NCBI GenBank assembly: GCA_016215405.1
Contig: JACRJQ010000008.1
Coordinates: forward strand, 25,866 to 89,865
Length of the DNA: 64,000 bases
Reading direction: 5' to 3'
Source of the DNA: Candidatus Tayloriibacteriota bacterium
GTDB taxonomy: Bacteria > Patescibacteriota > Minisyncoccia > Phycocordibacterales > UBA6065
Numbering within the stretch: the first letter of the stretch is position 1; each line of letters opens with the position of its first letter. Made by a program: the position numbers and the translations under genes. The notes beneath the pieces were generated by a model that made no database searches, was not told where the DNA came from, and was given only the letters and a program-made list of their open reading frames with translations. Below are positions 4,751-40,442 of the stretch, piece by piece.

Positions 4751-5959
4751 GTGATAGTAAACCTCCAAAAGCCCGTCGTCTACGTCACGCGCGACATCGA
4801 GCGAGCTTTAGGCATGGAGCCTTCAGGGAGCTACTTCGTCATATCGAACGATACGGCATACGGCAGGAAGGTCCGGGAAGCGTATCCTGACAACGTCCTG
4901 CTCGTCCGCGACCGAGGCGAAACCTCGGTAAAAGATACCGAGGTTTCGCCTCGGTATCTCGATACATACGATCTCCTGCTCATGCCCGAGGTGCAGAGGG
5001 AAATCTCAGACCGCGACGCCGACCTCCTCGTATTCCAGAACACCCCCCGCATCGAAAGGCTCGCCAAAGAGAAGGGCTGGAGCCTCCTCAACCCGTCGGC
5101 CATGCTCTCGCGCGAGGTCGAAGAGAAGGTCTCCCAGGTGGCATGGCTCGGCGAGGACGCCTCTCTCCTGCCCCCTCACCGCATCGCGCTCGCAAAGGAC
5201 GCGAGGTTCGAAGGCGCGAAGTTCGTGCTGCAGTGGAACCACTCACATACAGGAGAAGGCACCTATGTCATAGATTCGGCCGAAGCACTCTCTTCTGTAG
5301 CCTCGAGATTCCCGGATCGAGAATGCCGGATAACGAGATTCGTCGAGGGGCCGGTATTCACCGTGAACTCGGTCGTCGCGGAGGCGATCATCGTCGGAAA
5401 CCCGAGCTATCAGATAACCGGCCTCGCGCCCTTCACCGACCTTCCCTTCTCTACCATAGGCAACGACTGGGACCTTCCCCGCGACGAAGAGTACGCGGCG
5501 GTGAGCGAGGAGGTCCGTAAGATGGCGATCCGTGTCGGAGAGAGGCTCCGGCTCTCGGGCTGGTACGGGCTCTTCGGCATCGACGCCGTCTACGACGAGA
5601 AAGCCGGAAAGACATATCTCCTCGAGATAAACGCGCGCCAGCCCGCCTCGACCACGCTCGAATCGAAGCTCCAGAAGAGCGACTCTATATTCGAAGCCCA
5701 CCTCTCTGCGCTCCTCGGCCTTCCGGCTGCGAGCGGTCCGGAGATACGAGGGGCGCAGATCGTAAAGCGCGTCACCCGAGAGGCTTATTCCATAGACGAA
5801 GCCGCCCTCTCGGATAAGGGCCTCTCCCTCATCGGATACGAGAACACCGAGCACAACAAGGAGATCCTGCGCATCCAATCCGAGAGAGGTATAATGAGAG
5901 CCCACAACAAGCTCAACGACCTAGGGATATCCATAGCATCATGCATCCGCAAGATATAG
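4751..5959 (+). CDS. ATP-grasp domain protein (peptide/amide ligase-like).
   Basis: C-terminal ATP-grasp signature LSGWYGLFGIDAVYDEKAGKTYLLEINARQPAST. The start is uncertain (GTG 4751 or ATG ~4812). The upstream part of the track ORF (4232-4750) overlaps rsmI and is not coding. Confidence 0.7.
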   Translation: MIVNLQKPVVYVTRDIERALGMEPSGSYFVISNDTAYGRKVREAYPDNVLLVRDRGETSVKDTEVSPRYLDTYDLLLMPEVQREISDRDADLLVFQNTPRIERLAKEKGWSLLNPSAMLSREVEEKVSQVAWLGEDASLLPPHRIALAKDARFEGAKFVLQWNHSHTGEGTYVIDSAEALSSVASRFPDRECRITRFVEGPVFTVNSVVAEAIIVGNPSYQITGLAPFTDLPFSTIGNDWDLPRDEEYAAVSEEVRKMAIRVGERLRLSGWYGLFGIDAVYDEKAGKTYLLEINARQPASTTLESKLQKSDSIFEAHLSALLGLPAASGPEIRGAQIVKRVTREAYSIDEAALSDKGLSLIGYENTEHNKEILRIQSERGIMRAHNKLNDLGISIASCIRKI

Positions 5960-6744
5960 ATACGGAAAAGACGGGAAGCTCAAAGCTCGAAGGCAAAGCC
6001 CGCGCCGTCGTGGATTCCTACCTCGCCTTGCCTCTCGGCACCAAGCCTTCTTGCCCCTATTTCAACAATCGCAGGCGCAAAGGGCGCGGAGGGCTGCGCG
6101 TCCTCGTCGGGAAAGGCGCGCCGGAGGAGATCGCGGGAGAGGCGGAGATATTCGCGCTCCGGCAAAGGATAAAGCTCAACCTTCTCTCGACCGATAAGCT
6201 CAAAGAGTTCCTCTGCGAAAACGACCTCGGCGTCGATTGCTCCGGTTTCGCCTATCATGCGCTCGATGCGCTCTGTCGGGAAAAGAGAGGAAGGGGCATA
6301 CAGAGCTTCGTGAAGTCGAATAGAACAGGAATCCTCGGAAAGATCCTCGCGAGGCTGCGCCCTGCCGAGAACCTCGGGGTGAGCTCCTTCAGAAACGACA
6401 AGAACGGCTCTGCCGTCAAAGTCAGAGACGCGATGCCCGGAGACCTCATCACCTTTATGGGCACGGGCCGCGACAAGACGTACAACCACATCCTCGTCAT
6501 AACAGGCGTCGATAGGCTCGGCGGCGATACGCGGCTCACCTACGCGCACTCCTACTCGTGGCCTTCGGACGGACTCTACGGCCACGGCGTCCGCGAGGGC
6601 GACATACTCGTCCACGGCGAAGACCTCCTCGGCGGGACATGGAAGGAACAGGGTCAGACCGGAAGCGACAACTATACGTTTACGAGCGCTCGCGACGCGA
6701 AAGAAGTCTCGCTGCGCCGGCTGAATTTCCTTGTTGAGAGATAA
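5941..6744 (+). CDS. Putative papain-like/NlpC-P60-like cysteine peptidase or amidase (Cys-His), overlapping the ATP-grasp gene by 19 nt.
   Basis: DLGVDCSGFAYHAL (candidate catalytic Cys) and downstream YNHILVITGVD (candidate His). The 19-nt overlap with the ATP-grasp gene suggests translational coupling. Confidence 0.4.
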   Translation: MHPQDIDTEKTGSSKLEGKARAVVDSYLALPLGTKPSCPYFNNRRRKGRGGLRVLVGKGAPEEIAGEAEIFALRQRIKLNLLSTDKLKEFLCENDLGVDCSGFAYHALDALCREKRGRGIQSFVKSNRTGILGKILARLRPAENLGVSSFRNDKNGSAVKVRDAMPGDLITFMGTGRDKTYNHILVITGVDRLGGDTRLTYAHSYSWPSDGLYGHGVREGDILVHGEDLLGGTWKEQGQTGSDNYTFTSARDAKEVSLRRLNFLVER

Positions 6745-6958: not shown

Positions 6959-8092
6959 ATGACCGACTTCCTCCCCACCCAGATACAAAGCCTCACCTCG
7001 CTCCTCGGCTGGGCCATCACATCGGCGCTTGTAGCCCTTATCTGGGCGCCTTTCCTTATAAAATATCTGCGCCTCTGGGGCATAACCAGGCAGAGCGCGG
7101 GGGACGCCACCATGGGCATGGAATCGCGCCAAGGCAAAGCCGCTACGCCTATCATGGGAGGCCTCCTCATAATACTCACGGTACTCCTCCTCACCTACTT
7201 CTGGAATTGGGAGAGGCGCTACACATGGGTGCCTATCGGCGTCCTGGGCATCTCAGCGCTCCTTGGCGCCGTCGACGACCTCCTCAACGTCTTCGGCTCC
7301 GAGCGCAGGCAGAGGTCTCTTTCCCAGACCTTTACCCTCATCCGCGTCCACAAACTCTGGTACGCGAAGCTCTGGCTCATCGTCACCTTGCCGTGGACGG
7401 TCTTCAAGAGAGCGACGACGATCTTCGGCTCCAAGCAGCGCCGCGGAGTGCTCGTGCACGAGAAGCTCCTTCTCCAATTCGCCGCCGGAGGAATATCGGC
7501 ATGGTGGATCTATTGGAAGCTCGGAGAGAGCTGGCAGAACATCTATGTGCCATGGCACGGCTATCTCGATATAGGGGTCCTCGTCGTGCCCCTTATAATC
7601 CTCATCGTCATGTTCACGGCGAACGCGGTTAACGTGTCCGACGGCATGGACGGCCTCGCCGGCGGCATGCTCATCCCGACTTTCGGCGCCCTCGCCTTCA
7701 TGGCGTGGGTATCCGGCTACAGCGAGCTCGCCGTCCTTAACTCAGTGACCGCCGGCGCTCTCCTCACCTATACCTATTTCAATATAAAGCCGGCCAGATT
7801 CCAGATGGGAGATGTAGGCAGCTTGGGCCTCGGCGGGCTCCTCGCCATAAACGCCCTCGCCACGAACTCGATGATCATCCTCCCTTTCATCGCCTTCATG
7901 TTCTACGCCGAAGCCCTGACGGTCATACTCCAGACGGTCGGACGCCACGTCTTCGGACGCCGCATATTTCGCATGGCTCCCCTCCATCACCATCTCGAGC
8001 TCCGCGGCTGGTCGGAAGAGAAGGTCATCATGCGCATGTGGGTCGTCCATCTTGGTTTCGTCGTCTTGGGCGTCTGGATAGGGCTCCACTAA
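6959..8092 (+). CDS. mraY: Phospho-N-acetylmuramoyl-pentapeptide transferase MraY.
   Basis: NAVNVSDGMDGLAGG, APLHHHLELRGW, 10 TM helices. Confidence 0.9.
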   Translation: MTDFLPTQIQSLTSLLGWAITSALVALIWAPFLIKYLRLWGITRQSAGDATMGMESRQGKAATPIMGGLLIILTVLLLTYFWNWERRYTWVPIGVLGISALLGAVDDLLNVFGSERRQRSLSQTFTLIRVHKLWYAKLWLIVTLPWTVFKRATTIFGSKQRRGVLVHEKLLLQFAAGGISAWWIYWKLGESWQNIYVPWHGYLDIGVLVVPLIILIVMFTANAVNVSDGMDGLAGGMLIPTFGALAFMAWVSGYSELAVLNSVTAGALLTYTYFNIKPARFQMGDVGSLGLGGLLAINALATNSMIILPFIAFMFYAEALTVILQTVGRHVFGRRIFRMAPLHHHLELRGWSEEKVIMRMWVVHLGFVVLGVWIGLH

Positions 8093-8093
8093 G

Positions 8094-8741
8094 ATGTCGT
8101 ACCTCAACTGGGACACCAAAGTCGTAGCGGATCTATCCCCCGAGAACGTCGCAAAGATGTACGATGAAGGCTACGTGTTCACCAGGGTCGACAAAGGCGT
8201 GATGAACAGGACCCGCTCTTTCCGCGTGAACCTAAAGGCGTATCAGGCGTCCTCAGAGAACCGCCGTGTCCTACGCAAAGCCGAAGACCTCTCGCTTAGA
8301 GTGGAAGCCATCCCCTACCCCCTTTATTCCTGGAAGATAGGCAAGCTCGCCAAGGACTTCTACGAGAAGTTCGGAGACAACGTCTTTACGGCGAACAAGA
8401 TAAAGGAGATATTCACCGACGAAGCGAAGTCGAATTTCAACCGCGCCCTCGTCTATAGTTCGAAGAGATCGGGAGAAGACGTCGGATACGCGGTGTGCCA
8501 CGAGTCGAAGAGCCTCCTGCACTATTCCTACCCCTTCTACGTCGAGGAGCCCTCGCGCGGCATCGGCATGATGACCTTAGCCCTTGAGTGGGCGAAGGCT
8601 AAAGGCCTCGACTACGTCTATCTCGGCTCGCTCTCCCGCCCTTCTGACTCGTATAAGCTCCAATTCCTCGGCGGCGAGTGGTTCGACGGCGCGCATTGGC
8701 AGGTAGACACCGCCCCGCTCAAAGCCATCCTCAAGCCCTAG
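8094..8741 (+). CDS. Arginyl/leucyl-tRNA--protein transferase family (Bpt/ATE1 C-terminal domain-like, GNAT fold) protein lacking the N-terminal Cys cluster.
   Basis: LDYVYLGSLSRPSDSYKLQFLGGEWFDGAHWQ resembles Bpt DYLYLGYWI..S.KM.YK..F.P.E.L.DGAWQ. YSYPFY resembles MYSYFDP. The gene starts 2 nt after the mraY stop. Confidence 0.5.
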   Translation: MSYLNWDTKVVADLSPENVAKMYDEGYVFTRVDKGVMNRTRSFRVNLKAYQASSENRRVLRKAEDLSLRVEAIPYPLYSWKIGKLAKDFYEKFGDNVFTANKIKEIFTDEAKSNFNRALVYSSKRSGEDVGYAVCHESKSLLHYSYPFYVEEPSRGIGMMTLALEWAKAKGLDYVYLGSLSRPSDSYKLQFLGGEWFDGAHWQVDTAPLKAILKP

Positions 8742-8801: not shown

Positions 8802-9224
8802 ATGAAGATATCTCTCGTAACGGTCGGAAAGACGCAGGGAAAGGAGTTCGCCGAGTCTATCGCGGACTATTCGAAGCGCGTCTCGCGCTACGTCCAGTTC
8901 GAGTTCGTCGATACGGTCGAGGAAAGGCTCGCCAAAGCGCTCGAAAAGATGGATCGCGTGTTCCTCCTCGACGAGCACGGCAAAGAATATACGTCCATGG
9001 AATTCTCGGGCTTTGTAGAGAAACAATTGAACGCCGGCGTGAAGAACGTCGCCTTCGTCATAGGCGGACCCTTCGGATTCTCGGACGAGGTCCGCGCCCT
9101 CGCCGACTCCTCCATCGCCCTCTCGAAGATGACCTTCCCCCACGACCTTTGCCGGGTCGTATTCCTCGAGCAGCTCTATCGGGCGTTCTCCATCCTTCGA
9201 AACGAGAAGTACCACCACGAATAG
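8802..9224 (+). CDS. rlmH: 23S rRNA (pseudouridine1915-N3)-methyltransferase RlmH.
   Basis: 140 aa SPOUT protein, MKISLVTVGKT...VAFVIGGPFGFSDEV...FPHDLCRVVFLEQLYRAF. Confidence 0.9.
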   Translation: MKISLVTVGKTQGKEFAESIADYSKRVSRYVQFEFVDTVEERLAKALEKMDRVFLLDEHGKEYTSMEFSGFVEKQLNAGVKNVAFVIGGPFGFSDEVRALADSSIALSKMTFPHDLCRVVFLEQLYRAFSILRNEKYHHE

Positions 9225-9265: not shown

Positions 9266-10663
9266 ATGGAAAATCCCAAGAAGGTCCACTTCATAGGCAT
9301 CTGCGGCGTCGCTATGAGCGCCGTGGCGACTGCTCTGTGGCAGAAAGGATTTAAAGTGACAGGATCTGACGCGGGCTTCTATCCGCCCGTCTCGACGCAC
9401 CTCTCGAACGCGGGCATCCCCTACTATTCGGGCTGGCATCCGGAGAAGATGGTCGAGGGCGGCGCGCCGGACCTCGTCGTCGTGGGCAACGCCGTATCGA
9501 GCCAGAATCCCGAATTCGTCTACGTAAAAGAGAGAGGCATCCCTTTTAAATCCTATCCAGAAGCCGTGGGCGAACATCTCATAAAGCCCCATTCGGTGGT
9601 CGCTTCTGGCACGTACGGCAAGACGACTTCATCCGCGCTCCTCTCGCACATATGGAAGCATGCGAGCCTGAAGCCGTCGTACATGTACGGCGGACTCACT
9701 CAGGACGGCGCTCCGTCAGCCGCGGCGGATTCGGGCGAATGGTCTATCGTCGAAGGAGACGAATATTCCACTTCGAAATGGGACAAGGGAGCGAAATTCT
9801 TCCACTACAGGCCTACGCACCTCCTCCTCACGGCGGTAAAGTGGGACCATGCCGACCTCTACCCTACGGAAGAATCGTACTTCGACGCTTTCAAGAAGCT
9901 CGTCTCCCTCGTGCCCAAAGACGGCGTTATCGTCGGATGCATAGACGTCGAGAGCGTCCCCAAGCTCCTCGCGAAGAGGGATTTCATAAGCTACGGAGCT
10001 CACAAGGACGCGTCGTACAGGTACGAGAACATCGTCCAGACTCCTTCCGGACTCACTTTCGATATCGTCTACCACGGCAAGAAGTACAATATCGAATCCC
10101 CTCTCCTCGGCGCATACAACGCAGAGAACATCACGGGCTGCTTCGCTATGGCGTACGCGTGCGGCATCTCCCCCGGAGACATCTCGGATGCGATAAAGAC
10201 GTTTCCCGGGATGAAGAGGCGGCTCGAAAAGCGCTACGAGAACGCCGTGACAGTGATAGACGATATCGCCCATTCGCCGGAGAAGGCGCGATCGGTCCTC
10301 AACAACCTCCGCCACATCTACTCAGGTCTCGTCATCGCCGTCTACGAGCCGAACATCGGCAACCGCACGACCCAATCGAAGCCGGCGTACAAGGATGCGT
10401 TCAAGGACGCTGACACGGTCGTCATCCCCCGCCTCACGAAGCTCAAGGTAGACCCCGACAATCCTGAGGCGTATTTCGACGGAGACGAGCTCGCCGCGAC
10501 CATAGAAGAGAGCCACAAGGAGGTGCACTATCTCGACAGCGACGAAGAGCTCGTCGAATTCCTGGTAAAAGCCCGCGGCAAAGGCGACGTTATAGCGTTT
10601 TTAGGCTCCCACGGCTTTCGCGGGATGATAGAAGAGACGGTAAAGAGGCTGGCACAAAACTAG
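9266..10663 (+). CDS. Mur ligase: UDP-N-acetylmuramate:L-alanyl-gamma-D-glutamyl-meso-DAP ligase (Mpl)-like, or MurC.
   Basis: HFIGICGVAMSAVATAL...VTGSDAGFYPPVSTHL closely parallels the E. coli Mpl N-terminus (ILGICGTFMGGLA...VTGSDANVYPPMS). GTYGKTTSSA P-loop. Confidence 0.8.
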   Translation: MENPKKVHFIGICGVAMSAVATALWQKGFKVTGSDAGFYPPVSTHLSNAGIPYYSGWHPEKMVEGGAPDLVVVGNAVSSQNPEFVYVKERGIPFKSYPEAVGEHLIKPHSVVASGTYGKTTSSALLSHIWKHASLKPSYMYGGLTQDGAPSAAADSGEWSIVEGDEYSTSKWDKGAKFFHYRPTHLLLTAVKWDHADLYPTEESYFDAFKKLVSLVPKDGVIVGCIDVESVPKLLAKRDFISYGAHKDASYRYENIVQTPSGLTFDIVYHGKKYNIESPLLGAYNAENITGCFAMAYACGISPGDISDAIKTFPGMKRRLEKRYENAVTVIDDIAHSPEKARSVLNNLRHIYSGLVIAVYEPNIGNRTTQSKPAYKDAFKDADTVVIPRLTKLKVDPDNPEAYFDGDELAATIEESHKEVHYLDSDEELVEFLVKARGKGDVIAFLGSHGFRGMIEETVKRLAQN

Positions 10664-10669
10664 AAAAAC

Positions 10670-10695
10670 CACGTCAGAGGCGTGGCTTTTCTTAC
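10670..10695 (+). terminator. Rho-independent terminator after the mpl/murC-like gene.
   Basis: aaaaaccacgtcagaggcgtggcttttctt. Confidence 0.5.
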
Positions 10696-10805: not shown

Positions 10806-10857
10806 GGAGCTTGGATTCCGGGTCAAGCCCGGAAAGACAGAGGAGGGTGGGGACCCT

Positions 10858-11022
10858 CTATTTTCCCTCGTCCACGATCTCTAGAGCGACCTTATCTCCA
10901 TCGAGAGAGACGACCTCGAGCACGATCCCGCACAGAGGGCATTCTATGACGTACCCCTTAGTGATCTTCGGATGCTTCGAGACGTCGATATCGTTCTTGC
11001 ATTCTGGGCAGACGCATTTCAT
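10858..11022 (-). CDS. LysW/ArgW-like zinc-ribbon mini-protein (54 aa).
   Basis: MKCVCPECKNDIDVSKHPKITKGYVIECPLCGIVLEVVSLDGDKVALEIVDEGK. It matches the LysW architecture CPEC...C..CG..LEVV.LD plus an acidic tail, but the C-terminus is EGK rather than ...EE/DWGE. The larger track ORF (10858-11292) is only its out-of-context upstream extension. Confidence 0.5.
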   Translation of the reverse strand: MKCVCPECKNDIDVSKHPKITKGYVIECPLCGIVLEVVSLDGDKVALEIVDEGK

Positions 11023-11086
11023 ATTCGTTGGTCGTTTAGGTCTAAAGCGCTTTATATAATACCCGAAAGGGGCTAGTATACAAGGC

Positions 11087-11920
11087 ATGTTCGGCATAGC
11101 ACTCACGGCGCTCGGGTCGTTTCTCGACGAGACGGCCGCTTCCATCGGAAAGTGGGCAGTCACCCACAAGAAAGAGCCCCTTATGGTCATGGGGTTCCTC
11201 AACGTATTCTGGGTAAGCGCCATCTTCGGCGCGGTCGCTCTGTTCAAGGGAGAGTTCGCGTTCGCGCCCGCCGCCCTTCCCCTCTTCCTCACAAGGTCGG
11301 TCTTCGAGATCGCTCAATTCCACATAGGCCTCCTCGCCACGGTCAAAAGCGACAGAAGCGCCTTAGGATTCCTCATGATCCTCACGCTCCCCCTCCTCCT
11401 CGCCGTTGATACCGTCCTCGGCTACGAGATGACGACCTTGCAGCTTCTCGGCGTCGCGACGATCGTCCTCTCCCTGGCCCTCCTTCTCGTAAATCACGGC
11501 ATATCGAAAAAAGGGCTCGGCTACGCCCTCTTCATCGCGATCAATCCCGTGATCACCATCTCGATGTTCAAGTACTCGATCACCCATTACAATACGGTCG
11601 AAGTCGAACAGAGCCTCATGTTCGGCGTGCTCGCCGTCTACGGCGCCGCCATGTCGTACGTCATGCACAGGGAGAATCCCTTCAAATACCTCAAGAACCC
11701 GCTCTGCCTCGCTCACTCGCTCTTGCGCGGCGTAAGCGGGACCATGCACAGCTTCGCGTACGTATTCGCGCCTGCGTCCGTCATCACCACGGCGAAGCGC
11801 GCCGCATCGCTCTTCGCGGCCGTAGTGTCCGGGAACGTCTACTTCCACGAGAAGCATCTCGTCTTGAAGCTCGCGTCGTTCTCGCTTATCGTCTTGGGCC
11901 TTATACTCATCGTAGTATAG
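11087..11920 (+). CDS. DMT-superfamily (EamA-like) membrane transporter, ~10 TM.
   Basis: 277 aa polytopic membrane protein with an internally duplicated 5-TM organisation. Confidence 0.5.
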   Translation: MFGIALTALGSFLDETAASIGKWAVTHKKEPLMVMGFLNVFWVSAIFGAVALFKGEFAFAPAALPLFLTRSVFEIAQFHIGLLATVKSDRSALGFLMILTLPLLLAVDTVLGYEMTTLQLLGVATIVLSLALLLVNHGISKKGLGYALFIAINPVITISMFKYSITHYNTVEVEQSLMFGVLAVYGAAMSYVMHRENPFKYLKNPLCLAHSLLRGVSGTMHSFAYVFAPASVITTAKRAASLFAAVVSGNVYFHEKHLVLKLASFSLIVLGLILIVV

Positions 11921-11929
11921 TTACATCAT

Positions 11930-12811
11930 ATGCTTACCCCTCAGATAGAAGCGCCAGAGATAGCAGAGGAGCTCGGCATCCCGAAGCTCTATATAAAGCG
12001 CGAAGACCTGCATCCGTACGGGTCGCATAAGGGCCGCTCTATCCCTATGATGATAGACCTCAAGGCCGCCCGAGGGGCCAAAGAATTCGCCATATCTTCT
12101 TCCGGGAACGCGGCGATAGCGGCCGCTCGGCATATCGAGAAGAGGAACCTCGCGGGAGACGACCTGAGGCTCACCATCTTCGTAGGCGAGAGGATAGGCG
12201 AGGCGAAAAGAAAAGCGCTCGAGAACGTATCGATCGACGAGAGGATCAAGGTCGTGGACTCTCCCCGCCCCCTTCAGGCCCTCTTCAACCTGCTCAAAAG
12301 CGAGAACGGAAAGCCCGAGAGCCTGCGCCAGTCGACCGACCCTGAGGCTCTGCCAGGCTATAAATCGCTCGCCTTCGAGATCGCAGGCACCCCCGACCTG
12401 TCCGCGGTCTTCATCGGCACGTCTTCGGGGACATCCGCCCAGGCGCTCGCTGAATATCTCATAGAGCACGAAAAGAACGCCCAGATACACGTCGTCCAGA
12501 CGCGCGGGAACTCCCCTATCGCTCGGGCGTTCGATGCCGAAGAATACGAAGGCGAACCCTCTCTCGCCGATGCCATCGTAGACAAGGTCGCTCACAGGAA
12601 GGACGCCCTCGAAGAGGCGGTGCGGAGGACCGGAGGCTCGGGATGGGTCGCTTCTAATGCCGACATAGAGAAGGCCGTAAGGCTTTTGAGCGAGAAGGCG
12701 AATGTCCGAGCCACGCCGAACGGAGCCTTGGGCCTCGCCGGCGTCATACGCGCGATCTCCAAAGGCTGGAAGCCAGAAGGCGCGGTCGTAGCGATCGTGA
12801 CGGGAAGGTAA
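11930..12811 (+). CDS. PLP-dependent fold-type II enzyme (threonine synthase / cysteine synthase superfamily).
   Basis: LHPYGSHKGRSIPMM (PLP-lysine loop), glycine-rich loops SSGNAAIAAA and GTSSGTSAQA. Confidence 0.6.
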   Translation: MLTPQIEAPEIAEELGIPKLYIKREDLHPYGSHKGRSIPMMIDLKAARGAKEFAISSSGNAAIAAARHIEKRNLAGDDLRLTIFVGERIGEAKRKALENVSIDERIKVVDSPRPLQALFNLLKSENGKPESLRQSTDPEALPGYKSLAFEIAGTPDLSAVFIGTSSGTSAQALAEYLIEHEKNAQIHVVQTRGNSPIARAFDAEEYEGEPSLADAIVDKVAHRKDALEEAVRRTGGSGWVASNADIEKAVRLLSEKANVRATPNGALGLAGVIRAISKGWKPEGAVVAIVTGR

Positions 12812-12843: not shown

Positions 12844-13197
12844 TCAGGGGGCCTTCCGGGCCCTCCATCGTTCGAGAGAGAAGACCGATTCCGTGCGCAT
12901 GGCGTCGTCGTCTTGGTCGTCTTCCATGACGATTATGCAGACCGTGTCCGGGCCGTGCTTGCGGACGAAGCCGAGCTTGCCTGCATGGGAGCTTTTTATG
13001 TTGACGGGCGTTTTCTTGCCGTCTTTCGAAAAGACGAAGAAGTCTATGTCCTCGCCGCGGGCGCCCTTCGTCTTCGCGCGCTCGATCCGATCGAGCCAAT
13101 CCGGCGCCTTCGCCGAGTCTCGGAAGAGGGCGAGGAACCGCTCCTCGCTCCTGCGTCCCCTCTCTCGCTTTGAATGAGCGTCTCCATCGGTGTTCAT
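12844..13197 (-). CDS. Hypothetical protein (117 aa), downstream partner of the 13308-14666 gene.
   Basis: Start MNTDGDAH is preceded by GGAAGGAGG ~11 nt upstream. GC3-rich codons. The overlapping plus-strand ORFs are rejected. Confidence 0.45.
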   Translation of the reverse strand: MNTDGDAHSKRERGRRSEERFLALFRDSAKAPDWLDRIERAKTKGARGEDIDFFVFSKDGKKTPVNIKSSHAGKLGFVRKHGPDTVCIIVMEDDQDDDAMRTESVFSLERWRARKAP

Positions 13198-13307
13198 CGG
13201 TGATGTTTCCTCCTTCCCTATTATAGACAATAAAAAAGGGGCCAGTGAGATGTCCTGGCCCCGTTCCCTTTCAAGCGCCCTTCTCTGTGAGAGCCGCGCT
13301 ATCGGGG

Positions 13308-14666
13308 TTATTGTGTCGCCTTCTGCGCCGCCTCGGACGCTCCGTCGAGGACGGCGCCGAGATCAAGCGACCCCACCACCGCCTCCCAACCGTCCCGCGT
13401 CGCGGTCTTCTGCACTGAGGACGCGCCGTCAGGGGAGCTCTCGTAGCGCTCGATCCACTCCGCCTGCCCGTTCCCCGAGAACGCGCTCTTCGCGATGTCG
13501 ATGATGGCCGACATCGGAAGAAGGGAGCGGTTATACGGATGGGCGAACGATCCCGAGAGGAGCAGACGCTCGAAGGCAAGATGCCATTCGGGGCTGCACT
13601 CCTTGGTGCCGTTCCCCATGGCTTCCACGATCGAGGCCTTCCTGCCCGTCCGCGCCTTGTGCTCCGCCATGCGAACCATGGTAGCGAAGTCTTCGAGCGA
13701 CGGGCCGCCGTTCGGGTTCGAGACGACTTGGTATTGCCCGGACGAGCTACGGATCGCGACGATTGCCCAAGGGCCCTCGATCGACGATTTCGCGGCTTTT
13801 CCGGCATACTCGTTGTCGCTTTCGATGAAGAACGCGCGAGCCTTTGCCGAATCGACATCGATCTCGACCGCGACGGGCTTCTCCTTCATTTCGGCTAACG
13901 CCTTCATGTGGAGGACCTCGTCGAGATAGAGAGCGCGGAACGCCTCTTTGAGCCAGCGCTCGCGCACGGGAGACCGCATCTTCGACGCGATCGCCGCAAG
14001 CTCGGTCACCCGCTCGCCTTTGTGGGCGACGCTCCCCCGGATATAGCGGGAGACCTTCTGGGTCGAGTTGTGCGCCTTGTTGTAGCCACGATGGAGGGAG
14101 TAATCCTTCCAAGCGGCTTCGAGGTCGAACCTCTCGTCCGTCCTCCCGAACACGATGGCGTCGTAAGCGGCAGAGGCCCAGAGGTATGTCGCCTCCTGGT
14201 CTCCGCCCCCTTTGACGCGATGCATGATCTTGATGAGGTTGGCGAGCTGGGTATGTCCCACCTTCGGCTGCGTATCGCACCAGAGGGTCTCCTCGAGGAG
14301 CTCCTTCATACCCGGCTTTCCGAGGACGCGCAGGCGCTGCGCCACGAGAAGCGCCGCGCAGGTGCCCTGAAGGCGCCCTTGCGGCGTATGCTCGTCGAAG
14401 ACGTAGCCCTGCGGATTCTTGACCGTCCCGCCCAGACCGATGTAGATCCGATTGGGGTAGGTCGTTTCGAGCTTTTCGGCGAGGAAGACGAGCTTGGCGT
14501 TTTTTACGCCAGGGAACGCCTCCGCGCCGAACCGGTCGAACTGCCAAGTGCCGAGCATCTCGTCGTTATCCGCGCGGTTATGCGCATAGACGGCGACGAT
14601 GGGCTCGACCCGTGACAGGTTGGTGTGGTTGCGGCCGTTATGGCCGCGATTTTCGATGTGCTTCAT
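13308..14666 (-). CDS. Hypothetical protein, possibly a diverged DHH-family phosphoesterase.
   Basis: IVAVYAHNRADNDEMLG resembles DHH motif I (H-x3-D-x-D). VFDEHTP and RVKGGGDQE loosely resemble motif III and the DHHA1 GGGH motif. The start was taken at MKHIENRGH (the track start at 14714 is TTG). Confidence 0.4.
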   Translation of the reverse strand: MKHIENRGHNGRNHTNLSRVEPIVAVYAHNRADNDEMLGTWQFDRFGAEAFPGVKNAKLVFLAEKLETTYPNRIYIGLGGTVKNPQGYVFDEHTPQGRLQGTCAALLVAQRLRVLGKPGMKELLEETLWCDTQPKVGHTQLANLIKIMHRVKGGGDQEATYLWASAAYDAIVFGRTDERFDLEAAWKDYSLHRGYNKAHNSTQKVSRYIRGSVAHKGERVTELAAIASKMRSPVRERWLKEAFRALYLDEVLHMKALAEMKEKPVAVEIDVDSAKARAFFIESDNEYAGKAAKSSIEGPWAIVAIRSSSGQYQVVSNPNGGPSLEDFATMVRMAEHKARTGRKASIVEAMGNGTKECSPEWHLAFERLLLSGSFAHPYNRSLLPMSAIIDIAKSAFSGNGQAEWIERYESSPDGASSVQKTATRDGWEAVVGSLDLGAVLDGASEAAQKATQ

Positions 14667-14757
14667 TTTCTGGATGGGTCTTGCGACCCGACTGGGTTTC
14701 TGTGTTTGGGGCAATTGCCCTCTCGAGGGCGTACATGAAATGCCGACCTCTACCTAC

Positions 14758-19351: not shown

Positions 19352-20855
<1,504 letters not shown>

Positions 20856-21260
20856 AAACCGCAGATGGAGATCCCGAAGGACTTCTATCTGAGGCGAACG
20901 GAACAAAATAGATCACAGTATGCGAACTATCTTCTTCCTGGGAGATTCACGGGTGCTTTCCCGCCTCCACGATCCTATGGAGCATGGGGTCGAAAGCCCT
21001 CTTACAAATTTTCATTTGAATAGAGCCTACCCTCATGCTTATATCCGAAGAATACACTTGAACTTGCACAATACAGTTAGGATACTGTTTTACCAGTACA
21101 CTTTAACTTGCATTTGTTCTCTCCGCCGTGGCCAATGTGGCCCGGCGGAATTGATTATCTCAATATTTCAACGATCTCCTCACTAAGAGACCGAGGGAAT
21201 CAAAAAGTGCTTTACCAGCACTTTCTGACGTCCCACAAGGCTCTCAATGAGGTAAGGGTA

Positions 21261-36420: not shown

Positions 36421-36543
<123 letters not shown>

Positions 36544-36742
36544 CTCAATCCTCGCTATTTGAAACACAACAGATAAATATGAATTCTGAGAAAAGACAGT
36601 AAGCCTGAGCTTCCTGTGATTTCTAAATTTCCTAATAAGATCGGGTAATTAGTACTTCTCGGCTTAACACATTACTGTGCTTACACCTAAAGCCTATCAA
36701 CCTAGTAGTCTTCTAGGGCCCTCAAACGATTCCTTATCTTGG

Positions 36743-36785
<43 letters not shown>

Positions 36786-36921
36786 GACATAGCTACTCTG
36801 CGTTGCCACGGGCGTGACAGCAGATAGACCAGCGGTCCGTTCACTTCGGTCCTCTCGTACTAGAAGCAAAGCTCCTCAAGAATCAACGCCTGCAGTAGAT
36901 AGGAGACCAACCTGTCTCACG

Positions 36922-37200
36922 CTTCTTTTCGCATGTTGCCATGCGGAATGGACTATATCTTCATCCTTATTTATTTATTCATAAGGAGATCAACGTGTAG
37001 TCTCTACGGACGGGAACCCGCGCTCCCTTTCCTCGGTATTGCCCCCAATCATCTCCATTGTGGGTTTTACCGATATTAGTTGATGACGTACATGAAAGTT
37101 GCCCTTCATGACCGCCGTGATTGGTTGTGTCTCGTTTGTTTGTCCTTGATGTCCGAGGGATTCAGACTGTAGAGCCTATAATCTTTCGATTATGTTCTCC
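36922..37200 (-). other. ~280-nt ORF-less insertion (putative group I intron) in 23S at the E. coli ~2593 (I-CreI) site.
   Basis: It interrupts the conserved gctgggttcagaacgt|cgtgagacagg. The exon sequence resumes precisely on both sides. Confidence 0.55.
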
Positions 37201-37860
37201 ACGGTCTGAACCCAGCTCACGTGCCTTTTTAATTGGCGAACAGCCAAACCCTTGGGACCTTCTCCAGCCCCAGGATAAGACGAGCCGACATCGAGGTGCC
37301 GAACTCCGCCGTCGATATGAACTCTTAGGCGGAACGAGCCTGTTATCCCTAGAGTAGCTTTTGTCCGATAATCTTCCCCCGCATCTAATGCGTAAGGTCG
37401 GTTCACTTAGCTCTGCTTTCGCATCTGCTCGACAAGTACGTCTTACAGTTAAGCAAGTTTATGCCCATACACTATCGCCACGGTTTCCATTCGCGGCTAA
37501 CTTACCTTAATAGGCTCCTCCGTTACTTTTTAGGAGGATAGCGCCCCACTAAAACTACCCACCAGATACTGTCTCCCGCGGTTTTTGCCCTCGGGGTTAG
37601 AACATACAACGGCGAAGAACGCTATTTCACTGGCGACTCCATGCTGGCCGAAACCGCACTTCAAAGTCTCACGTCTATGCTACGCATCGCAATCGTATGC
37701 TCAATATCAAGCTGTAGTAAAGCTTCTAGGGTCTTTTCGTCTAACTGCAGGTACCCGGCATCTTCACCGGGATTGTATTTTCACCGAGCTGTACTTCGAG
37801 ACAGTTGCCCAGACGTTACACTATTCAACGCGTCAGAACTTACCTGACAAGGAATTGCGC

Positions 37861-38073
37861 TCAACTATTCCTCAGAGTTGGACTCTATCTTCAGCCTCTC
37901 TTTTAAGGGAGTAGGCTGCGCGGCGTTGGTCTCTATTTGACCGCGTACGGACTGACGGTGCATTACTGCCACCTCAGGTAGCTATCTGTGTAATTTCTAT
38001 TAGGCTCTTATTTATCAACACAACTATAGATCCGTCCCAGTCCTTCTGCATCCTTCCGAAGAAAGATGCAGAA
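37861..38073 (-). other. ~210-nt ORF-less insertion (putative intron) in 23S at the E. coli ~1925-1931 site.
   Basis: It interrupts the conserved ggtcctaagg|tagcgaaattccttgtcgg. The flanking sequence matches E. coli on both sides. Confidence 0.5.
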
Positions 38074-38917
38074 CCTTAGGACGGTTATAGTTACCGCCGA
38101 CATTCACCAGGGCTTACATTCATCAGCTTGATATAATCGCACCGCAAATGGTTGACCTTCTGGCATTGGTCAAGTGTCACCCCCTATACATCCTCTTACG
38201 AGTTCGCAGGGAGCTGTGTTTTTGATAAACAGTCGCCAGGCATACTTTAGCTGCGGCCCCTTGAGTAAACAAAGGGCAAGCCTTATCGCTAACTTACGGC
38301 TGCTTTTTTGCCGAGTTCCTTGAAGTACCTTCACTCGTTCGCCTTCGTCTTCTCGACGTGATCACCTGTTTCGGTTTTCGGTACGGATCACCTCCGGTTG
38401 TGCTTAGAGACTTTTCTTGAAAGCGCGCTTTGCATAGTTCCCCGTAGCAAGCTACGGCTTCCCTCCTGTCTTTAGGCTCGCTAATTGAATAGCTGCTTGC
38501 GGGATTTTCCTCGCAAACGCCCTCTGACCAAAGACCCCAATCCAATAAGGGGCTACGCATACTGTGCTCCGTCATCCCATCGCACCGGGTGTGAGTCACG
38601 GAATATTAACCGTGTGTCCATCAGGTACGGCTTTCGCCATCCCCTTAGGCCCGACTAACCCTTCGCTGATATCCATTGCGAAGGAAACCTTAATCTTTCG
38701 GCGTGCGGATATCCCATCCGCATTGTGGTTACTTGTGCCAACATTCTTACTTCTCTACGCTCCAGCATGGGTCACCCCTTTGCCTTCAGCGCGAAGAGAA
38801 TACTCTCCTACCAGAACATCTATACGAATATAGATGCAATCCTCAGTTTCGGTATCATGCTTTAACCCCGATCATCTGCGGCGCAGACTCTCTAAGTGAG
38901 TGAGCTGTTACGCTTTC

Positions 38918-38949
<32 letters not shown>

Positions 38950-39529
38950 TCACCGTCGAAGAAAATCCACCACCTCCCTTGTACTTAGCATGAATTTTGG
39001 GACCTTAAATTGAGATTCGGGCTGTTTCCCTTTTGTCTAATGGAGCTTAGCCCCCACAGACTTACTGCCGTTCTTTTGACCAGAGGTATTCGGAGTTTGA
39101 TAGGTTCTGCGATCTTTCGACCTGTCAGAATCTTCCAGTGCTCTACCCCCTCTGGGAACGAACGACGCTATGCCAAAACATATTTCGGAGAGAACCAGCT
39201 ATTACCGAGTTCGATGAGCTTATCACTCCATACCACATGTCATCGCAGAGTATTGCACGTCTCTAGCGTTCGGTCCTTCCTCTATCTTTCGACAGAGTTC
39301 AACCTGCACATGGCAAGCTCACCCGGCTTCGGGTCTGATACGTACTACTTTGTCGCGCTATTCACACTCGGTTTCCCTGCGGCTCCGGGCATTCAAGCCC
39401 TTAGCCTTGCAGCACGCATCAACTCGTTGGCTCATTCTTCAATAGGCACGCCGTGACGGTAATAAATTACCGCTCCGACTCCTTGTAAGCATATGGTTTC
39501 AGTTCTATTTCACCTCCCTCTCCGGGATA

Positions 39530-39569
<40 letters not shown>

Positions 39570-40442
39570 TTCTGGAATATTTAGCCTTAGCGGTTAGTTC
39601 CGCCAGATTCCCTCAGGCTATTCGTGTCCTGAGGTACTCAAGAATGGCAATAAAAGAGGTGTTTCGCTTTCGCGCACGGGACTATCACCCTCTGGGGTCT
39701 GTCTTTCCAGACAATTACGCTAACGAAACACTTTGTAACTCTTTCCACTATAAATAGTGACACTGCCACCTTACTACCCCCGATCTTAATCGCGTCCTAC
39801 GTCTTGCGACATAATCCGCGATTAAGACCGAGTTTGGGCTATTTCGCTTTCGCTCGCCACTACTAACGAAATGTTGTCGACATACATCGACATTGTTTTC
39901 TCTTCCTCCTGGTACTGAAATGTTTTACTTCCCAGGGTACGCTCATTCATGTCAAGCATGAATGTCTCTGGTATCTCTACCAGAGGAGTTGCCTCATTCG
40001 GAAACGACCGGATTAACGCCTGTTCAGCGGCTCCCCGATCATATCGTTGCTACACAACGTCCTTCATCGCTTCTCAGAAGCCTAGGCATCCACCATATGC
40101 TCTTAAATTTCCTATTAGGAAATTTAAAAACCACTTAACTTCTCTCAATGATATCGGCCTGCTTACAACAGACCGACATACAATTCATTTTTACCTGTTG
40201 CCCGTTTCTTTTGGTAAAGAAACGGTTTATCTCGATCTACCGTCTATAGATAGATGAGAATCGTCTCGCGCTCTTCTTTTGACGGGCCGACCTGGCCCTA
40301 AGCGCGTACGGGGTTTCGTTTTCAAATAACTCTCTGAAAGAAAAACCGCTCTTCGGAGAGCGGCATCGGAACAGGGCCAAATCAATGGCCTATTTGATGC
40401 GCGTTCTCTTAAGGGGATTCAACATATTCAGAGGTAGCCATA

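Follow-up and report, generated by a model that had tools for sequence, protein, structure and literature searches.

This report concerns a small gene (the mini-gene) and its 54-residue product (the mini-protein), found in a 64,000-nucleotide stretch of DNA from a Candidatus Tayloriibacteriota bacterium (assembly GCA_016215405.1, contig JACRJQ010000008.1, positions 25,866 to 89,865 of the forward strand), referred to below as the window. The mini-protein is a zinc ribbon of the LysW fold that is homologous to LysW, lies outside the curated LysW family and ends in an invariant E-x-K-COOH tail. Its gene is linked, through several rearrangements of gene order, to genes for a pyridoxal 5'-phosphate (PLP) enzyme of fold type II, an ATP-grasp ligase and an NlpC/P60-like peptidase, and to mraY. 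The mini-protein is tentatively read as a repurposed carrier of the LysW family, which would hold its cargo on the E52-x-K54-COOH tail, be served by the three dedicated enzymes and pass the product to peptidoglycan-precursor synthesis. An earlier note, made from the letters of the window alone, had drawn attention to the gene; what became of its claims is given with the results that bear on them.

10858–11022, minus strand: LysW-fold zinc-ribbon mini-protein, 54 residues; zinc ligands C5, C8, C28 and C31, modelled beta-hairpin 34-51, free tail E52-G53-K54-COOH

The mini-gene and its product

The mini-gene starts with ATG at 11022 and ends with TAG at 10858-10860 on the minus strand; its product is MKCVCPECKNDIDVSKHPKITKGYVIECPLCGIVLEVVSLDGDKVALEIVDEGK. 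An annotated 54-residue hypothetical protein from a Candidatus Taylorbacteria metagenome-assembled genome (MAG) is 100% identical to it, and the open reading frame (ORF) given in the earlier note stands as it was. A 144-residue, GTG-started ORF (10858-11292) was rejected as the mini-gene. The ATG start was preferred because all homologues start with MKC... and because the extension overlaps a membrane-protein gene on the opposite strand. Among 27 distinct, ungapped 54-residue orthologues, nucleotide differences at codon positions 1, 2 and 3 numbered 4693, 3265 and 11559. The mini-gene is genuine, and its protein sequence is under purifying selection.

Kinship with LysW

The Pfam model of the LysW globular domain (PF21344) matched the mini-protein with 36.7 bits, above its gathering score of 27. 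The NCBIfam model TIGR01206 (lysW) gave 24.8 bits against a cut-off of 53.2, with only residues 1-42 aligned, and NF041070 (carrier_LysW_Arch) gave 33.2 bits against a cut-off of 75; the alignments to LysW profiles end ahead of the tail. The mini-protein has the fold of LysW and is homologous to it, and is outside the curated family. The description of the protein as LysW-like, made in the earlier note, therefore holds for fold and ancestry and fails for curated membership, on the TIGR01206 comparison that the note itself had proposed.

The four cysteines (CxxC ... CxxC; C5, C8, C28 and C31) are invariant in 34 sequences drawn from two branches of the family, referred to here by their ends as the DEGK branch (that of the window) and the EEEK branch. 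An AlphaFold2 model of the mini-protein, obtained with an alignment of 34 family members, was confident (pLDDT 89). In the model, strands 34-41 and 44-51 form a beta-hairpin and only E52, G53 and K54 project. By count, the window protein has 10 Asp/Glu vs 7 Lys (net charge about -3); members of the EEEK branch are strongly acidic.

The tail of canonical LysW reads ...EDWGE, and the gamma-carboxyl of its C-terminal glutamate holds the amino group of the cargo. Loading of alpha-aminoadipate (AAA) on LysW is carried out by LysX (PMC12998189). LysX, LysZ, LysY, LysJ and LysK were found neither among the profiled ORFs of the window nor in the Pfam annotation of related loci, both searches covering gene neighbourhoods only. 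The remark in the earlier note that none of these genes is nearby was borne out for the orthologues, but it had passed over a conserved ATP-grasp partner 5 kb away.

The C-terminal tail

Residues E48, I49, D51, E52, G53 and K54 are invariant in 18 close homologues. In GTDB genomes, 85 loci were surveyed: the final seven residues are EIVDEGK at 80 of them and EIIDEGK at 4, one locus being masked. This survey of homologue C-termini (EI[VI]DEGK at 84/85 loci) confirmed that the non-canonical -VDEGK end noticed earlier is real and invariant. Among the 27 orthologues the tail codons vary synonymously only: Gly53 is encoded by all four glycine codons and Lys54 by AAA or AAG, and D51-E52-G53-K54 is constant.

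Relatives of the mini-protein were sought with an exhaustive hidden Markov model search; 69 matches came from 1.84 billion representative proteins. An acidic run followed by a terminal lysine was present in 48 of them (DEGK, EEGK, DDKK, EEEK, EEDK or LEEK), and a canonical-looking ...DDFGE end in only 1. A distant branch of the family ends in ...IEEEK. When the DEGK and EEEK branches were aligned, the invariant positions were the four cysteines, E7, N10, E27, G32, E52 and K54; a LysW ribbon with E-x-K-COOH at its end is therefore the signature of the family. The tail is the most constrained part of the mini-protein and no accidental ending. Relatives occur in at least 133 GTDB species, and all carriers there come from Patescibacteria-type genomes.

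No fusion of the mini-domain to a partner enzyme was present among the matches of the exhaustive search, which held only apparent frameshift or chimeric entries (P0052, P0064 and P0069) and unrelated tandem zinc-ribbon proteins. In a separate family (P0051, P0068, P0072, P0076, P0082 and P0085), two or three LysW-like zinc ribbons stand in tandem ahead of a basic tail rich in Lys and Arg; its members resemble fold derivatives that bind nucleic acids and are not related to the E-x-K family. P0224 (494 residues), which shares a 90% cluster with P0088, was discarded as unrelated, a clustering artefact.

Conserved gene neighbourhood

The genes of the window that take part in the conserved arrangement are as follows.

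4751–5959, plus strand: predicted ATP-grasp carboxylate-amine ligase, 402 residues; conserved partner 5 kb from the mini-gene and proposed loader
5941–6744, plus strand: probable NlpC/P60-like papain-fold Cys-His peptidase or amidase, 267 residues; overlaps the ATP-grasp gene by 19 nucleotides and is the proposed releaser
6959–8092, plus strand: MraY, phospho-MurNAc-pentapeptide translocase
8094–8741, plus strand: homologue of ATE/Bpt-like aminoacyl-tRNA-protein transferases, 215 residues; between mraY and the Mur ligase gene
8802–9224: RlmH, member of the window operon that converges on the mini-gene
9266–10663, plus strand: MurC/Mpl-like Mur ligase, 465 residues, with three Mur ligase domains; convergent on the mini-gene
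11930–12811, plus strand: minimal PLP fold-II enzyme (PALP), 293 residues, distantly threonine-synthase-like; conserved partner of the mini-gene

At 83 of the 85 loci the PALP gene is the immediate, divergently oriented neighbour of the mini-gene. In the order of the Paceibacteria type, genes for the ATP-grasp enzyme, the NlpC-like protein, MraY, the ATE-like protein and the MurC-like ligase converge on the mini-gene, itself divergent from PALP. Because the genomes of the 85 loci are related, the EEEK branch was also examined. There, PALP, ATP-grasp, NlpC-like (about 250 residues) and mraY form a tight operon, with 1-nucleotide gaps and overlaps of 4-8 nucleotides, that runs divergently from the mini-gene and is surrounded by genes for FemAB, a Mur ligase, MurG and FtsW. 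In a third arrangement (locus L089) all genes lie on one strand, in the order PgeF, mini-gene, ATE_C, Mur ligase, PALP, ATP-grasp, NlpC-like (about 250 residues) and mraY.

The partners in the rearranged loci are orthologues of the window proteins (phmmer E 1e-23 to 1e-41); identity of the mini-protein falls to about 35-45% there, and the flanking genes outside the module differ. In the converse test, started from two divergent ATP-grasp homologues, the mini-gene was found again, between a Mur ligase gene and PALP. The linkage of the mini-gene to the three enzymes and MraY is conserved through several rearrangements. Since it was kept despite them, the conserved core comprises four proteins (the LysW-like one, the PLP fold-II enzyme, the ATP-grasp enzyme and the NlpC/P60-like one) and is joined to mraY and other genes of peptidoglycan-precursor synthesis. 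Of this context the earlier note had seen the PLP enzyme; the ATP-grasp enzyme, the NlpC/P60-like peptidase and the peptidoglycan-precursor cluster had escaped it.

At some loci of the Paceibacteria type the NlpC/P60-like gene has the opposite orientation to the ATP-grasp gene and mraY and still lies between them (L093 11200-11976, L094 9542-10321, L039, L041, L045, L056, L068, L070 and L083), which is a local inversion preserving adjacency. In some lineages a Cu-oxidase_4 gene (YfiH/PgeF-type, 'peptidoglycan editing factor' family) stands directly beside the mini-gene on the same strand (L001 8374-9156, L002 5207-5989 and L089 2574-3443); this neighbour is another tie to UDP-MurNAc-peptide metabolism.

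The three partner enzymes

The ATP-grasp family comprised more than 1176 members in a homologue search. The window protein had no match in the PDB by phmmer, and a profile search of the PDB returned only PurK (8.7e-6). An AlphaFold model (pLDDT 94.4) was compared with known structures: the nearest were PurK/PurT, L-amino-acid ligases (LAL), PylC and BesA, and more remote (values in brackets) were LysX/ArgX (17.0/16.2), Ddl (<=16.9), RimK (14.7), tubulin tyrosine ligase (TTL; 13) and macrocyclases of ribosomally synthesised and post-translationally modified peptides (RiPPs; 11-13). The nearest structures all join a small acid or an amino acid to an amine. From these structure comparisons the enzyme is predicted to be an amide-forming carboxylate-amine ligase, neither a LysX orthologue nor Ddl. 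PylC acylates the N-epsilon of lysine. Assignment of the window enzyme as D-Ala-D-Ala ligase was rejected, Ddl not being among the nearest structural neighbours, as was assignment to RimK-type LysX/ArgX or to a tailing ligase of the RimK/TTL clade, whose structures are more remote than the PurK/LAL/PylC group. A search of the window and of 92 loci, reaching about 20 kb from the locus, turned up no canonical Ddl, and no lysine-pathway gene was found in the rest of the window.

The PLP enzyme of the window has a PALP domain (135.9 bits). Models of threonine synthase (ThrC) gave at most 62 bits against cut-offs of 167-421, the best one scoring 62 vs a cut-off of 303. A PDB profile search returned ThrC (2.9e-19), threonine dehydratase (1e-14) and aspartate racemase (2e-11). 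Conserved in the family are the PLP lysine (K34, in GSHKGRS), the Asn/carboxylate loop SSSGNAA, GTSSGT, LRQSTDD, R133 and S135. In an alignment to 2zsj the phosphate-binding serine is kept (S135) and the arginine position is not; another invariant arginine, R133, lies two residues before the serine. In ThrC the phosphate of O-phosphohomoserine is bound by the Ser and Arg of the motif NSxNPxR, to which the residues were mapped. The enzyme was not accepted as a threonine synthase, since it scores below the ThrC cut-offs and lacks one of the two mapped phosphate ligands.

The 267-residue protein probably belongs to the NlpC/P60 family. C100 (in GIDCSGF), H183 and H203 are invariant in 34 orthologues, and there is no signal peptide; because of this triad and the missing signal peptide, the predicted peptidase would act in the cytoplasm and not on the wall. 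The window protein had no Pfam match at E<=0.01 and no PDB match by phmmer. It could be aligned weakly to the NlpC/P60 domain of LytE at the catalytic Cys motif (E 0.26), and one of its orthologues matched PF00877 weakly. Orthologues of the window protein in L087 and L089 were found with E 1e-23 to 7e-27. The classic substrates of the NlpC/P60 family are gamma-D-glutamyl-diamino-acid bonds.

Peptidoglycan-precursor genes beside the module

MraY (PF00953, Glycos_transf_4, in every context) is present at 68 of the 85 loci, the rest being limited by contig ends, and its gene shares an operon with the module in all lineages that were examined. The Mur ligase, present at 82/85 loci, scored 267 bits with the murC model (cut-off 335) and 234 with mpl (cut-off 389); its orthologue in L089 was found with E 3e-58. 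The ATE-like gene is present at 69/85 loci. Arginyltransferase models gave its window product up to 34 bits, below their cut-offs, and ATE_C matched the orthologue in L089 (3927-4757) with 27.3 bits. In the EEEK branch FemAB genes (L087 1699-2694 and L090 283-2339) replace it. The ATE-like enzyme may be a Fem-like cross-bridge transferase, or may aminoacylate or otherwise act on the mini-protein.

Transcription signals around the mini-gene

10843–10858, minus strand: terminator-like hairpin directly 3' of the mini-gene stop, detected by consensus scan only
11023–11086, no strand: short spacer between divergent genes, upstream of the mini-gene; this position directly abuts the divergent PALP gene in most relatives

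The terminator consensus scan of the region found 4 sites vs 0.7 expected in shuffles. The hairpin that follows the mini-gene stop suggests that the mini-gene is monocistronic in the window genome. A consensus scan for sigma-70 promoters gave no match upstream of the mini-gene (11023-11086); a candidate TATATAA box was seen by eye about 30 nucleotides upstream of the ATG. Between the Mur ligase gene and the mini-gene lies a strong bidirectional terminator-like hairpin (10662-10692), with a 12-bp stem and T-runs on both strands.

Proposed mechanism and alternative explanations

In the proposed cycle the cargo would be a small molecule, most likely an amino acid, attached covalently at E52-x-K54-COOH. 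The ATP-grasp enzyme would load it through an amide bond, and the PLP fold-II enzyme would modify the tethered cargo or use the tail itself as a reactant. Hydrolysis of the link by the cytoplasmic NlpC/P60-like cysteine amidase would then regenerate the carrier, and the product would feed the cytoplasmic synthesis of peptidoglycan precursors (Mur ligases, Fem/ATE-like transferases and MraY). In LysW pathways LysX and LysK are the ligase and hydrolase counterparts. The enzyme set fits a logic of loading, modification and release, and the cycle would be analogous to that of LysX, LysW and LysK and built of different parts.

A more specific version of the carrier, the preferred though more speculative one, is possible, if doubtful: a LysW of inverted polarity, or 'carboxyl-group carrier protein', with the carboxyl of the cargo on the N-epsilon of K54. 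It would give the ultra-small bacteria of the candidate phyla radiation (CPR) a new way to make a D- or non-standard amino acid for the wall. LysW ends in D-W-G-E and the mini-protein in D-E-G-K, both being 54 residues long, and the terminal reactive group would have changed from a carboxylate to an amine. The PylC/LAL-like ATP-grasp enzyme would activate a carboxyl of a free amino acid (e.g. the side-chain carboxyl of Glu or Asp) and tie it to the N-epsilon of K54. The tethered cargo would keep its alpha-amine and alpha-carboxylate free, and the PLP enzyme would racemise it or carry out a beta- or gamma-replacement. With the alpha-amine free such PLP chemistry would be possible, unlike in canonical AmCP (amino-group carrier protein) pathways, where the alpha-amine is the tether. 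The NlpC/P60 amidase would release the product as a peptidoglycan building block.

Several points weigh against the carrier reading. The PLP enzyme could more simply be a racemase or dehydratase of free amino acids, and the ATP-grasp enzyme a dipeptide ligase replacing Ddl. The latter also lies outside the LysX/RimK clade known to act on protein C-termini. The DEGK-branch protein is mildly acidic (net about -3), unlike LysW. The modelled free tail of about 3 residues is far shorter than that of LysW, and docking of the globular domain would have to take place immediately at every active site. In the lineage of the window the mini-gene, with its own terminator and with divergent and convergent neighbours, is not co-operonic with the module. 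Part of the linkage could be inherited synteny, because the module lies in a dcw-like cluster and the order of such clusters is generally conserved. Covalent loading, the tail atom used, the identity of the cargo and the link to peptidoglycan chemistry are all points that we infer, and for covalent loading this itself counts against the reading.

The mini-protein could instead be a non-covalent accessory or regulatory subunit (structural, chaperone-like or pseudo-substrate) that binds the PLP enzyme or another peptidoglycan-precursor enzyme, which we hold to be unlikely. Its E-x-K tail, never modified, would mimic part of a stem peptide (...Glu...Lys); PALP and ATP-grasp would act on free amino acids, e.g. 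as a racemase and a D-amino-acid or dipeptide ligase substituting for Alr and Ddl, and the NlpC-like protein would trim peptides. Such a role would agree with the short tail, with the adjacency to PALP (83/85 loci), with the additional matches of the PLP enzyme to Asp/Ser racemases and dehydratases, with the Ser before Gly in SSSGNAA as in fold-II racemases, and with the position of the ATP-grasp enzyme near L-amino-acid (dipeptide) ligases. The lack of a canonical Ddl in the window and the 92 loci also agrees with it, but covers only about 20 kb around the locus. An invariant terminal lysine with a free carboxylate, on the homologue of a covalent carrier, is more specific than docking requires, and a cytoplasmic pair of ligase and amidase is hard to explain for free amino acids. 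Alternatively, the tail would be edited in the style of RimK or of TTL and vasohibin, the papain-fold peptidase removing the encoded lysine in cycles and the ATP-grasp enzyme re-adding it or extending the tail, so that the state of the tail is a signal or switch for wall synthesis instead of a pathway intermediate. Alpha-tubulin ends in …EEY and ribosomal protein S6 in …EE, and an acidic run with one encoded end residue (…EEEK or …DEGK) resembles both; the ATP-grasp enzyme and the Cys peptidase are conserved alongside the mini-gene. Editing would leave the equally conserved PLP enzyme without a role, and is judged improbable.

Still less probable is a ribosomally made scaffold consumed in small-molecule synthesis (pearlin-, mycofactocin- or RiPP-like), in which the lysine or the whole E-x-K would be transformed by the PLP enzyme and the ATP-grasp enzyme and cut off by the peptidase, one carrier being spent per product unless recharged. 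The invariant, core-like C-terminal motif and the linked peptidase and modifying enzymes would suit it, and there is precedent for amino-acid-derived products on the C-termini of carrier peptides (PMC9303977). To spend 54 residues on each product is implausible in the case of a wall component, no RRE (RiPP recognition element), radical-SAM or PEARL genes were seen in the examined contexts, and the MraY/Mur context of housekeeping type and the presence in at least 133 GTDB species with reduced genomes argue for primary metabolism. A generic small zinc ribbon with no functional tie to its neighbours, whose synteny would be phylogenetic inertia, is likewise disfavoured as highly unlikely. It would be consistent with carriers that all come from Patescibacteria-type genomes and with a monocistronic mini-gene in the window; against it, linkage is kept across at least three gene orders or strand arrangements at about 35-45% mini-protein identity, and the tail is invariant under synonymous drift. 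The earlier note had left the choice between a repurposed carrier and a plain zinc ribbon; the former is favoured by the tight family, the invariant E-x-K and the conserved enzymes, and the homologues did not prove generic. A canonical LysW or ArgW of AAA-dependent lysine or arginine biosynthesis, to which the Pfam globular-domain match and the label 'lysine biosynthesis protein LysW' given to relatives by some sources might point, is effectively refuted: the terminal residue is Lys and not Glu, both NCBIfam models score below their cut-offs, LysX/Z/Y/J/K are missing from the window and the related loci, and the ATP-grasp enzyme is not LysX-like.

Relation to known systems

The mini-protein was compared with known carrier and tail-modifying systems. 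In the LysW/ArgW AmCP systems of Thermus, Sulfolobus and Thermococcus, LysW has a terminal Glu and a free tail of about 8-10 residues, whereas the mini-protein has a terminal Lys and about 3. Their ligase is of the RimK/LysX type, while the partner ATP-grasp enzyme falls in the PurK/LAL/PylC structural group. In place of the LysZ kinase, LysY reductase, LysJ aminotransferase and LysK M20 hydrolase, a fold-II PLP enzyme and an NlpC/P60 Cys peptidase are present here, and the context is one of peptidoglycan-precursor genes instead of lysine or arginine biosynthesis. AmCP systems of secondary metabolism keep the C-terminal Glu and enzymes of the LysX/Z/Y/J type. In these pathways (Streptomyces vazabitide/DADH type; Serratia ser cluster, PMC11726168) LysW-family carriers were recruited to non-lysine chemistry with new tailoring enzymes. 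Unlike them, the mini-protein family replaces both the Glu and the enzymes.

PylC and the enterococcal D-aspartate ligase use a lysine acceptor that is free or in a UDP-MurNAc-peptide, not the C-terminal residue of a protein, and their sequence similarity to the ATP-grasp enzyme is negligible. In glutathionylspermidine synthetase/amidase and in TTL/vasohibin, both examples of an established design, an ATP-grasp ligase is matched by a papain-fold amidase (CHAP or transglutaminase-like) that reverses the same amide bond. The module resembles these systems and RimK-S6 in the pairing of an ATP-grasp enzyme with a papain-fold cysteine amidase and in the acidic tail with one gene-encoded terminal residue. 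In CysO-CysM and other sulfur-carrier systems, a small carrier inserts its C-terminus into the active site of a fold-II PLP enzyme, where it serves as the nucleophile; this is the likeness proposed for the present case. Carriers of the CysO type are of the beta-grasp (ubiquitin-like) fold, end in a Gly-Gly thiocarboxylate and need an E1-like adenylating enzyme, none of which is present here.

To our knowledge, LysW-type carriers are known only as Glu-ending amino-group carriers with enzymes of the LysX/Z/Y/J/K type, in lysine and arginine biosynthesis and a few secondary-metabolite pathways. Full-text literature searches found no published description of a Lys-terminated LysW family or of the module, whose proteins carry the public labels 'hypothetical', 'LysW', 'ribosomal protein S27E' and 'threonine synthase'. 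The results suggest a branch of the LysW family whose reactive end and enzyme set are both new, in a carrier-protein pathway that has not been described. Should it work in the proposed way, the carrier-protein principle would reach into new chemistry. Linked to mraY, Mur ligase and Fem genes in minimal genomes with almost no amino-acid biosynthesis, the module probably represents an unrecognised step in obtaining or tailoring a building block of the CPR wall. It is of relevance to the host dependence of CPR bacteria and to the annotation of thousands of MAGs.

Other features of the window

11087–11920, plus strand: hydrophobic membrane protein, 277 residues; between the mini-gene and PALP, outside the module

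The 277-residue protein had no Pfam or NCBIfam match, and neither EamA nor another family was found even at E<=10. A homologue lies next to the mini-gene in 1 of the 85 loci only, on the opposite side there, and the gene is therefore a window-specific insertion. Of the two neighbours named in the earlier note, the PLP fold-II enzyme is conserved (83/85 loci); the drug/metabolite transporter (DMT) was rejected as a meaningful neighbour, having no family support at E<=10 and occurring at 1/85 loci. Two further ORFs, at 13308-14714 (minus strand, 468 residues) and 12844-13230 (minus strand, 128 residues), had no family matches; homologues of the 468-residue protein adjoin PALP in 8 related loci.

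The rRNA genes of the window are unlinked, the 16S gene (19353-20856, minus strand) lying about 16 kb from the 23S (36628-40120, minus strand) and 5S (36428-36535, minus strand) genes. The match to the 23S model (2925 nucleotides) extends over 3493 nucleotides, which implies one or more insertions of about 570 nucleotides in all; CPR rRNAs are often reported to contain such insertions.

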